This document shows, in pieces, positions 25,316-34,486 of a DNA stretch of 34,518 nt; position 1 is the first letter of the stretch; every line of letters starts with the position of its first letter. Where the stretch lies: IMG/VR virus record IMGVR_UViG_3300032231_000012, positions 1 through 34,518 of that record; one strand, given 5' to 3'. Origin of the DNA: a virus (lineage: Duplodnaviria; Caudoviricetes). The translations under genes were made by a program, and so were the position numbers. The notes beneath the pieces were generated by a model. It searched no databases. It was given only the letters and a program-made list of their open reading frames with translations, and had not been told where the DNA came from.

Positions 25316-25371
25316 CTCTAAAACAAAAATAAATAAAAATAGGTCTAAAGTCCTATATACAGATATGTTAA

Positions 25372-25404
25372 AATGAATTTAAAGTAAATTTTGGAGGGAT
25401 ATTA
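25372..25404 (+). repeat. 33-bp promoter/RBS leader, copy 1
   Basis: AATGAATTTAAAGTAAATTTTGGAGGGATATTA, identical to 26030-26062; overlaps an extended -10 TGTTAAAAT. Confidence 0.9.
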
Positions 25405-25406
25405 AA

Positions 25407-25583
25407 ATGTATGAATTATTAAAAAATCTTTATGTAGAAATAGAGAAAGTTCAAGATGAAATAGAAACCAAGTATCATTATGATACGACACTATGGGAAG
25501 AAGCAAGGAAAAGTTTATATCCTTTAAAAGTTAATTTAAGTTTTACAAAAAATGAAATAAATAAAATATTAAAAATGCTTTAG
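25407..25583 (+). CDS. 58-aa helical hypothetical protein (not in ORF track)
   Basis: MYELLKNLYVEIEKVQDEIE...NKILKML; GGAGG RBS. Confidence 0.7.
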   Translation: MYELLKNLYVEIEKVQDEIETKYHYDTTLWEEARKSLYPLKVNLSFTKNEINKILKML

Positions 25584-25628
25584 AATGTGGTATCATTAGA
25601 TAAATACTATATTGGAGGTTAGAAAATA

Positions 25629-26003
25629 ATGAAAGAACATAATGCAGAAGAGTTGAATACGATACAAAAAAGAAATAAATTAAATAATGTATCAAGATAC
25701 GGAGAAGTTGGACCTGGTGGAGCTTATCATAATTATTGTGTTATAACAGATAATTTATGCGGTAATATTGTTGATATTAAGTTTCAAAAAGGAGCTAGAC
25801 ATGAGCCATACAGCGTTTCTGGAGTTTTAGATGTAGATTTATTAGAAATAGTTAGGGATAGGCTTTCAAGTTTCCAACAAGGAGATTTTAAGACAAGAGA
25901 AAATGCAATAGCTCTAACACATATTGAAGAAGCTTTATTGTGGATGAATAAAAGAGTTGAAGATAGAGCAGAAAGGAATGTTCTAGGAACAAACCAAAAA
26001 TAG
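25629..26003 (+). CDS. tad1: Tad1-family anti-defence sponge (Thoeris/CBASS signal sequestering)
   Basis: TIQKR.KLN.V...GPGGAYH.Y...IKFQKGAR...[46 protein letters not shown] closely matches clostridial Tad1 as I recall it. Confidence 0.9.
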
Positions 26004-26029
26004 TCGCCTTTTAACTGTTGTTTTGCTAG

Positions 26030-26062
26030 AATGAATTTAAAGTAAATTTTGGAGGGATATTA
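26030..26062 (+). repeat. 33-bp promoter/RBS leader, copy 2
   Basis: Identical to 25372-25404; overlaps an extended -10 TGCTAGAAT. Confidence 0.9.
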
Positions 26063-26235
26063 TGAAAAAATATTTAGGAGTTGCAGAGCCAATGAGTTTA
26101 GGGGAATATAACAAATTTAAAGGTTGGACTATTCCAAAAAATGAGGACCCCGAGACTGAAGGATATAAAGTTAAATATTCGGATGGTTATATATCTTGGA
26201 GTCCAAGAGAAGTTTTTGAAAAATCTTATAATTAA
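26062..26235 (+). CDS. 57-aa stand-alone 'SWSP' domain protein (not in ORF track)
   Basis: MKKYLGVAEPMSLGEYNKFKGW...EGYKVKYSDGYISWSPREVFEKSYN; homologous to the N-terminus of the next gene. Confidence 0.8.
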   Translation: MKKYLGVAEPMSLGEYNKFKGWTIPKNEDPETEGYKVKYSDGYISWSPREVFEKSYN

Positions 26236-26264
26236 AAAAATAAAAGGTAAATAAGGAGATTTTT

Positions 26265-26732
26265 ATGGAAAAATATTTAGGAGTTAAATTGATTGAAGCT
26301 GAACAAAAGACACACGGAGAGTATACAAAAATCAAATATTGTGAGAGTAATCCCATTAACACTGAATTTTCAAAAGAAAATGTCAATAGTGCTGGTTACA
26401 TGGTTAAGTATGACAATAATTATATATCTTGGAGTCCTAAAGATGTTTTTGAAAAAGCTTATTTTAAACTTGAAAAAACTAATAACACAATATGTCAAAC
26501 CGATGTTGATTTATTTATAAAAGATGTAAAATCAATCAAACAAGGTGAAAAAACAACGGTTACAACTGTTACTTTAATAAACGGTTTTGAAATATTTGAA
26601 GCTTCTAGCTGTGTTGACCCTGATAATTTTGATATGAGTTTAGGAGAACAAATTTGTTTAGGAAAAATTAAAGATAAAATATGGAATCTGTTAGGTTTTT
26701 TATTACAAACAGGTGTTGCTGGTATAAAATAG
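26265..26732 (+). CDS. SWSP domain fused to a Phage gp49/66-like domain (candidate Acb4-type sponge)
   Basis: N-terminal KYLGVKLIEAE..YISWSPKDVFEKAY; C-terminal TTV..TL.NGF.....SSCVDP.NFD...G..IC...I..KIW.L.GFLL. Confidence 0.75.
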   Translation: MEKYLGVKLIEAEQKTHGEYTKIKYCESNPINTEFSKENVNSAGYMVKYDNNYISWSPKDVFEKAYFKLEKTNNTICQTDVDLFIKDVKSIKQGEKTTVTTVTLINGFEIFEASSCVDPDNFDMSLGEQICLGKIKDKIWNLLGFLLQTGVAGIK

Positions 26733-26796
26733 TCACATTTTAGGTGGCTTTTGTGCTATAATAATACTATGCTTATGTTTTTTGATATAACTAAAT

Positions 26797-26838
26797 AAAG
26801 AAAAGACTAGTGCTTTCAGGTCACTAGCCTTTTTTTTG
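26797..26838. terminator. Bidirectional terminator between convergent units
   Basis: AAAAGACTAGTG...CACTAGCCTTTTTTTT with A and T tracts on both sides. Confidence 0.8.
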
Positions 26839-33367: not shown

Positions 33368-34486
33368 ATGATTAAATTTTTAAGTTACTTAGGATTTTTG
33401 GGTAGTTGGTATGTTAGTTTTCTCCTTGCATCTACTTTGGCCAACACCAAAACAGATTATGTAGTAGCATTTATTTTTACATCAGTGATGCAGTTTTCAA
33501 GTTTTTATTTTTTCAAGAAAGGAAATGAGAATCAGAAGTATTTTTATATTGCAGGCGTGTTATTCGCTATAAGTATCTTGGGCACAATGTGTTATCAGCT
33601 TTCCATACACGACCAAGCGCAGAACGAAATGATAGTAAATTCCGACGAATATCAAAAGCACCAAGATAGTCTATCTAATCAAAAAGAGTTAATAGCAGAC
33701 ATGAAAGCAAGCAGAGAATCGTTAATACTATCATACAATGAGCAAGTTGAAAGCCTTGTGTCACAGAAGAATTCTATGCCAGAGAATTATATCACAAGGA
33801 AAGCACAAGTCGACACCAAAATAAATGCAGTTAAACAAGAATTATCAGATAAGCTTGAAATGTTAAACAACTCTTTAATCACACAGTCAAATGAATTAAA
33901 AGAGTTGAATAACACCAATATAGTTACTACTAATCTAAGGTACACCAAGGGGTATCTCGGTATATCTAGTATTATAGCAGATTTTTTCAACATTAACAAA
34001 GAATTAGTAGTGCTATTCATACAGTTTGTAATCGCAGTTACATTTGAGGCAACCGCAGTTGTGCTTCATGTGTCTCTCAATCCACTAGATATAATTGAAA
34101 ATAAAAAGGAGCGTGTTTTTAAAAATGCAAAAATTAGAAAAGGTGTTTTGGATATCCATCGTAGTAATAGACCTAGGAATGATAACACTAGCAGTGGTGA
34201 AATTATGGCAATACCTAATGTAGACCTAAAAAAAAAAGAAATTTCGCCTAAAAAAATTGAAACAAAATCTTATAAAATTAGTGACATAGACGTGAAAAAA
34301 TACAGAAACGCAATGGAGCAAACGCAGTCGGACACATATTGCGTAGGGTATCGCAAAATTTCAAAAATCGCAGGTTTGACGGACTCGAAAGGTAGGCAAA
34401 TATTTGAACATCTTAAGCAAATTGGCATCATAGAAACAACCCAAAATGGTACTAAAATAATTAAGTTTCAAAAAAAGGTGGTGTAG
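33368..34486 (+). CDS. Membrane protein: 3 TM, coiled coil, TM, C-terminal winged-helix-like domain
   Basis: Hydrophobic segments flank a long heptad region; C-terminal GYRKISKIAGLTDSKGRQIFEHLKQIGII. Confidence 0.8.
   Translation: MIKFLSYLGFLGSWYVSFLLASTLANTKTDYVVAFIFTSVMQFSSFYFFKKGNENQKYFYIAGVLFAISILGTMCYQLSIHDQAQNEMIVNSDEYQKHQDSLSNQKELIADMKASRESLILSYNEQVESLVSQKNSMPENYITRKAQVDTKINAVKQELSDKLEMLNNSLITQSNELKELNNTNIVTTNLRYTKGYLGISSIIADFFNINKELVVLFIQFVIAVTFEATAVVLHVSLNPLDIIENKKERVFKNAKIRKGVLDIHRSNRPRNDNTSSGEIMAIPNVDLKKKEISPKKIETKSYKISDIDVKKYRNAMEQTQSDTYCVGYRKISKIAGLTDSKGRQIFEHLKQIGIIETTQNGTKIIKFQKKVV

Follow-up and report, generated by a model that had tools for sequence, protein, structure and literature searches.

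The locus analysed here raises the question of why a phage should carry the same small domain, which we call the SWSP domain, in two adjacent genes, once as a free protein and once in front of a known immune-signal sponge, and whether that domain could be a sponge in its own right.

A sponge cassette with one domain in two adjacent genes

The window, by which we mean the whole stretch of DNA analysed, is an entire IMG/VR virus record of 34,518 bases that is about 60% complete. Its genes encode, among others, Rad52, ERCC4, an SLH-domain amidase, and a terminase with 43–48% identity to those of Bacillota phages; the phage is of a clostridial type. The sole full match to the locus was a sediment metagenome run, and no RNA data set was listed as containing it. 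A 372-aa ORF on the + strand (33368–34486) showed no convincing family.

Among genes that lie mostly on the − strand, a short + strand cassette comprises a 58-aa ORF (25407–25583), a Tad1 sponge gene of 124 aa (25629–26003), the free SWSP gene of 57 aa (P0001; 26062–26235), and a gene of 155 aa (26265–26732). The 58-aa ORF belongs to no known family, and its weak, sub-cut-off match to Csm2 is likely due to chance. The Tad1 gene is homologous over its full length to a solved Tad1 (phmmer E 7.9e-45 to PDB 7UAV), while its match to PF24729 (E 1.4e-5) was under the cut-off. At the site in the C-terminal helix where cbTad1 has a Cys, which presumably binds metal, the window's Tad1 has an Ile. In the 155-aa gene, an SWSP domain with an intact N-terminal arm, the conserved lysine, and a divergent central loop (residues 1–68; 26265–26468, +) precedes a PF13876 domain (residues 77–149; 26493–26711, +), which scored 77.3 bits against a cut-off of 27 and matched Acb4 of phage SPO1 (PDB 9E4W) with a phmmer E of 0.006. 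PF13876, also called the gp49/66 domain, corresponds to Acb4, a family of anti-CBASS sponges (Chang et al., PMC11722364; Tal et al., 10.1101/2025.07.12.664507). Because the cassette holds a Tad1 gene and PF13876 is the Acb4 domain, it represents, by homology, a two-sponge anti-signalling island; the Tad1 and the Acb4 of the window are ordinary in themselves.

The initial annotation had pointed to the same domain, with DNA identity, in the adjacent genes, and this was borne out. In BLASTP, the products of the 57-aa and 155-aa genes matched at 32 of 66 aligned columns (E 7e-15). At the DNA level, identity was 96% across 23 nt where the two genes start and 78% across a 69-nt segment surrounding SWSP. 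The annotation had also given the free copy a ribosome-binding site and a promoter of its own. The former stands (GGAGGGA at 26051–26057), and the latter amounts to a −10-like motif that is missing from the list of the promoter scan, which returned 37 sites in the window versus 36.8 expected in shuffles. The ribosome-binding site lies in the second copy of a 39-nt leader repeat (26024–26062, +); the first copy (25366–25404, +; 95% repeat identity) precedes the 58-aa ORF and likewise carries a ribosome-binding site. The leader also contains the −10-like motif, which resembles the extended −10 consensus. A 26-nt core of the leader occurred twice versus 0.00 times expected, with no exact match elsewhere in viral_contigs. 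The two leaders flank a 658-nt unit made up of the 58-aa ORF and Tad1 (25366–26062), which recombination could excise or amplify. A 17-nt repeat follows both the Tad1 gene and the fusion gene: one copy lies at the end of the former (25997–26013), and the other belongs to an element at 26726–26749 (+), where a terminator-like hairpin (26731–26749) overlaps the repeat.

The free 57-aa copy

Four residues (KLIE) had been described as lacking from the free copy, and our alignments confirmed their absence. The gap falls in the middle of the N-terminal arm and includes a near-invariant lysine: of 228 distinct domains, 226 had K and 2 had R at position 8, none of them with a gap there, and in a pattern-free set the residue was K in 147 of the 150 domains. 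Among the domains examined, only the free copy lacked the conserved-lysine segment. The protein is also short at its other end, stopping 9 residues past the motif, as compared with at least 11 in all 67 short relatives found in the best 120 of 3,954 matches listed, so that its C-terminus is two residues shorter than any of theirs. Run X1 may be the source of this DNA and is not an independent sample; a separate assembly of it agreed with the window letter for letter, and without gaps, over 26033–26800 (depth 10.6). An assembly artefact was therefore not supported as the source of the four-residue gap.

The free copy showed 79–81% identity to the N-domains of other fusions versus 56% to its neighbour, and 74% and 70% identity to the N-domains of L022 and L023. 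In these two loci and in L102, Tad1 lies directly upstream of the SWSP-Acb4 gene; overall, of 108 loci with SWSP-Acb4, 4 had a Tad1 gene at a distance of about 900 nt or less. The pair in L022 is set among genes that, by eye, are anaerobic-reductase-like. A recent tandem duplication of the neighbour was rejected on the basis of these identities and of the separate placement of the copies on a poorly resolved tree. The splitting of a fusion gene by a point mutation was also rejected, because the ORFs are only about 30 nt apart and no partner remnant was seen. We consider it fairly likely that the free copy is not a duplicate of its neighbour but what is left of the N-terminus of another SWSP fusion. 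In such a course of events, this other fusion would have stood behind Tad1, and the loss of its partner domain would have preceded the loss of part of the N-terminal arm. The simplest history would be that an SWSP-Acb4 gene of the kind that directly follows Tad1 in L022, L023, and L102 was stripped of its sponge portion, the present SWSP-Acb4 gene behind it being a second and divergent one.

Whatever the mechanism of the family, the 57-aa copy might instead be a working, streamlined member, or might pair with the N-domain of the neighbouring fusion. Its frame is intact, it has a ribosome-binding site and the repeated leader, and its core motif and conserved columns are kept except for the deleted lysine and one R-to-K change. 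The dN/dS was 0.10–0.14 versus relatives and 0.20 between two fused relatives, in comparisons too distant to register recent decay. AlphaFold2 predicted the free copy with a pLDDT of 87.7, with residues 1–3 below 50 and a strand re-registered over residues 6–12; alignment-driven AlphaFold2 is insensitive to small deletions. Against a working protein stand the segment that all 228 other domains keep, the shortest C-terminus, and the finding of two complete SWSP copies in none of the 344 other loci, and we regard this reading as rather doubtful. The earlier suspicion of degeneracy is thus probably right, given that this is the only domain without the conserved-lysine segment. The intact SWSP copy of the window is the one fused to the Acb4-family domain, and the 57-aa copy is likely a damaged remnant, a poor representative of the family and likely not its working form.

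Fusion partners and stand-alone members of the family

A profile of 13 sequences was searched against 1.84 billion 50%-identity representatives and recovered 4,666 of them at E ≤ 1e-3 and 2,184 at 1e-10. No Pfam or NCBIfam model for SWSP was found, and PADLOC likewise gave nothing. The fusion to DUF2829 (Tad2) or gp49/66 domains that the initial annotation had mentioned was seen in 36 of the 37 longer close relatives (19 with Acb4 and 17 with Tad2). Among the best 149 of the 4,666 representatives (the window's own excluded), 76 matched a sponge Pfam at E ≤ 1e-3, namely Tad2 (40), Sequestin (27), Acb4 (15), and the Acb2/Tad1 hairpin (2), with 8 having two; 5 more matched Acb4 or Tad1 profiles built here, one had WDGH, one had an unnamed helical domain, and 66 were without a known partner. 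Of these last, 13 look stand-alone, one matched OmpA, and many have tails that appear frameshifted by eye. Association with sponge domains was also strong at the level of loci. The 179 other loci formed 133 clusters at 90% identity, of which 113, with partners assigned by profiles built from our own matches, were sponge fusions in both domain orders (65 Tad2, 20 Sequestin, 17 Acb4, 7 Tad1, and 4 triple or reversed). Of the remaining clusters, 10 were short ORFs, 6 had a partner of unknown type, 2 were fusions to a PGDYG-like domain, and 2 ran into contig ends. Tad2- and Acb4-fused SWSP domains interleave on the tree, which is poorly resolved.

The SWSP motif also occurred 291 times in the published Sequestin homologue file and 52 times in the Acb4 file; the Acb4 homologue table of Chang et al. 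(PMC11722364) lists 1,331 homologues. Two Lockin rows and one Acb2 row of the published tables contained it, with two rows per table viewed and the domain judged by eye. The six motif matches in the tables of Hadary et al. were, by eye, one Acb2 fusion and one fusion to a Tad2 "known homolog", together with four chance occurrences. SWSP is fused to at least five sponge families, Tad2, Sequestin, Acb4, Tad1, and RyR Tad, and apparently also to Lockin and Acb2. The domain extends from phages of Bacillota hosts to those of Pseudomonadota and Bacteroidota with its surface nearly unchanged; it is present in gp49 of coliphage N4 and also matches crAssphage records. In the RefSeq annotation of N4 (L183:2106–2959), PF13876 ("N4 Gp49") matches gp48, and gp49 is the SWSP-Tad2 fusion.

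Several other small domains keep company with SWSP. One, a helical domain that has no name and no Pfam match and is about 60 aa long, is fused to it twice (P0042 and P0152), and a domain of the same type forms a gene of its own (L065:3479–3712) beside an Acb4-Sequestin gene, making it a further sponge candidate. WDGH, fused to SWSP in P0172, is a candidate by association, as are PGDYG-like genes, which lie between SWSP-Acb4 and Tad1 (L025:2992–3237), lie near SWSP-Tad2 (L088:3135–3392 and L176), or are fused to SWSP (L166 and L177). The comparison of SWSP with the PGDYG-like PF14083 gave an hhalign probability of 2.7% and E 0.017 with a profile of only five sequences, and the PGDYG rows of BFVD gave E 0.23–0.34; the term PGDYG appeared in no paper of the literature searched. 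Tad2 (PF11195) was rejected as a paralogue by sequence (hhalign probability 0.3%, E 0.19).

To characterize the stand-alone genes, we used a search limited to proteins of 25–132 aa, which gave 3,954 matches among 4,687 candidates. The best 120 of these included 114 new proteins, 67 of them at most 82 aa long and a few others contig-edge fragments. Pairwise identity across the 67 ranged from 46 to 99%, and 27 of them end exactly 11 residues past the motif. The dN/dS values of 0.06 and 0.03 in two stand-alone pairs indicate purifying selection. Inspection by eye of the 10 short-ORF clusters identified 6 as intact, 2 as frameshift pieces, and 2 as truncated Tad2 fusions. No known sponge gene was present within 2.5–3 kb of any of the 6 intact clusters or of L197, suggesting that the stand-alone genes do not serve a neighbour in the loci seen. 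A scan for 73-aa stand-alone relatives found 1 in 80 loci, so that the gene context of these relatives is thinly sampled. A 73-aa stand-alone gene (L197:3001–3222) lies between what appear by eye to be ribonucleotide-reductase-like and glutaredoxin-like genes. Unnamed, mostly viral clusters of 50–78 aa in the ESM Atlas, with scores of 0.90–0.93, offer a lead only. SWSP thus shares the traits of the sponge class: it is a small domain encoded by phages, and it occurs both in fusions with known sponges and by itself. The earlier proposal of an independent sponge or sponge-accessory module is partly supported, for the family, by its sponge association and its stand-alone genes; the window's free copy is probably degenerate.

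A possible sponge function and its alternatives

A fold search with SWSP among predicted viral structures returned an RyR-domain protein, which led to RyR Tad, gp68 of Pectobacterium phage vB_PatP_CB1. Residues 4–65 of CB1 gp68 aligned with SWSP at an hhalign probability of 98% (E 3e-13, 40% identity over 58 columns), and the SWSP profile also detected the protein with hmmsearch (E 2e-11); by sequence homology, SWSP is the N-terminal domain of RyR Tad. In the portion of the RyR Tad preprint available to us (bioRxiv 10.64898/2026.06.04.730250), this domain is described as of unknown function and often a single ORF. The crystal structure of gp68 shows it as a β1-swapped dimer with a five-stranded sheet, and both domains of gp68 contribute to the dimer. 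Against type I Thoeris, the N-domain alone (gp68_N, residues 1–86) appeared inactive, whereas gp68_C alone sufficed, and the sub-micromolar ligands of full-length gp68 in SPR were gcADPR isomers and cADPR. The C-domain can explain these ligands.

An intact stand-alone member was predicted by AlphaFold2, as a monomer, to form a small barrel (pLDDT 95.2; strands 11–16, 37–42, and 48–52); its residues 1–10, although modelled with confidence (pLDDT 92), are not part of any strand. Such unpaired residues would fit an arm that pairs only in the dimer, and, judging from its position, the N-terminal arm with the conserved lysine may correspond to the swapped β1 of gp68. K, Y, S, and W were near-invariant across phyla and partners in the pattern-free set, from which we quote conservation because invariance in alignments A1–A3 was partly imposed by the search pattern. 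The best structural neighbours were small barrels of the Tudor, chromo, and CarD/Mfd types (Z 3.0–3.3, rmsd 2–3.4, 42–59 residues aligned). No match in the fold searches reached E ≤ 1e-3, nor did any of 48,161 chains reach Z ≥ 5, a result that does not show a new fold. Tad2 (8WJE) aligned with SWSP in Foldseek at E 1.5 over 42 columns with an rmsd of 3.3, outside the best 50 fold matches listed. Searched against PDB sequences, neither the free protein nor two profiles retrieved anything relevant.

We tentatively place first, as a possibility just short of an even balance, that SWSP is an autonomous, dimeric, putative sponge for a nucleotide immune signal other than 3'cADPR. The domain would dimerise by swapping its first strand and thereby trap the signal, and the arm lysine together with the Tyr, Trp, and Ser of GYxVxY and YxSWSP would line an inter-subunit pocket. 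Fusion would then yield a protein with two specificities, as has been shown for Acb4-Tad2 and Acb4-Sequestin. This reading is favoured because the free genes are conserved without sponge neighbours, the partners oligomerise unaided, and basic and aromatic residues are near-invariant. Against it, gp68_N was inactive against type I Thoeris and the gp68 ligands are explicable by the C-domain; the intact stand-alone genes did not cluster with sponges, which also withholds guilt by association, and 66 of the 149 best representatives had no known partner.

The inactivity of gp68_N and the participation of both gp68 domains in the swapped dimer would equally be expected if SWSP binds no signal and only dimerises or stabilises the fused sponge, raising its avidity or yield. 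The strandless residues 1–10 of the intact monomer model are what a swapped arm should look like, and this structural explanation is the only one with direct experimental support. It does not explain the stand-alone genes, which are common and conserved, and the partner sponges form dimers, tetramers, or hexamers by themselves in the available part of Tal et al. (10.1101/2025.07.12.664507), while gp68_C, in the preprint text at hand, works without SWSP. Near-invariant K, Y, S, and W would also exceed the usual needs of a generic dimer, and we consider a purely structural role unlikely. The Tudor/chromo/CarD/Mfd-type neighbours and the conserved aromatic residues could instead point to an SH3/Tudor-like module with a defence enzyme or sensor as its binding target. 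The free form would inhibit that target, and the fused form would carry its sponge to where the signal is made. Tad3–8 are protein-binding inhibitors of the same systems, as stated in the accessible sections of a review (PMC13728456). Z values near 3 are, by the tool's own description, at background level, and one near-unchanged surface from Bacillota to Pseudomonadota and Bacteroidota would be easier to reconcile with a small molecule than with protein targets that diverge. We therefore hold protein binding to be somewhat less likely still than the structural role.

Sponges have already been tools for finding new immune signals, Tad1 leading to 3'cADPR and MoTad2 to His-ADPR in the available part of Hadary et al. 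With thousands of clusters, riding on most known sponge families, and assayed by itself against a single system, SWSP is a candidate for such signal discovery. In a bolder proposal, which we judge improbable, SWSP would rank among the phage sponge families of widest distribution, overlooked for want of a Pfam model, and would sequester a signal outside current panels. Its attachment to five to seven unrelated sponges would then put this signal on a par with cGAMP and cADPR in its importance to phages, and SWSP could act as bait for both the molecule and the defence system making it. SWSP is a real, widespread companion of phage sponges without a characterised role.

The finding is partly anticipated by the RyR Tad preprint, to which the present work adds the link of RyR Tad to the family and the evidence on stand-alone genes; the available preprint text does not link the domain to other sponge families. 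The fusion logic by which Tal et al. (10.1101/2025.07.12.664507) found Sequestin, as described in the sections available, sought partners among Pfam families only, and the SWSP or SWCP motif was absent from the 126-row table of their five-system screen in the form at hand. Neither an SWSP function nor its multi-family fusion was reported in the literature searched, as far as the accessible texts extend (including PMC13712596, PMC13243611, 10.1101/2023.05.01.538930, and 10.64898/2026.08.10.743972), with most subscription journals outside coverage.

Compared with known systems, cbTad1 (PDB 7UAV) is a close homologue of the upstream gene at 25629–26003, which neighbours SWSP, and not of SWSP itself. 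SPO1 Acb4 (9E4W) differs from the window's fusion gene in that the latter carries an SWSP domain in front; extensions on Acb4 homologues are mentioned in the accessible text of Chang et al. (PMC11722364), where all eight homologues assayed bound 3'3'-cGAMP. The guanine-pocket residues K36, F48, and E49 of SPO1 Acb4, and also F62, correspond to K96, F108, E109, and F122 in the window protein, whereas V56, Y57, N63, I66, T70, and K81 are replaced by C, V, D, L, I, and N. Thus, 4 of the 10 named residues of the cGAMP pocket are identical and 6 differ, in an alignment reading that assumes a one-residue numbering offset, and the ligand range may therefore differ. In the N-domain of RyR Tad, both the lysine of the arm and the SWSP motif are present, and the window's free copy lacks part of that arm; the RyR Tad domain is fused to an RyR-like gcADPR sponge, whereas in the window SWSP is found free and fused to Acb4. 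Sequestin (PF21825) resembles SWSP in being small, phage-borne, fused to Tad2 and Acb4, and also stand-alone, and is often itself the partner of SWSP. The two folds are unrelated, Sequestin being a helical hairpin and SWSP a small β-barrel, and Sequestin binds 3'cADPR, whereas the one SWSP domain assayed did not block type I Thoeris.
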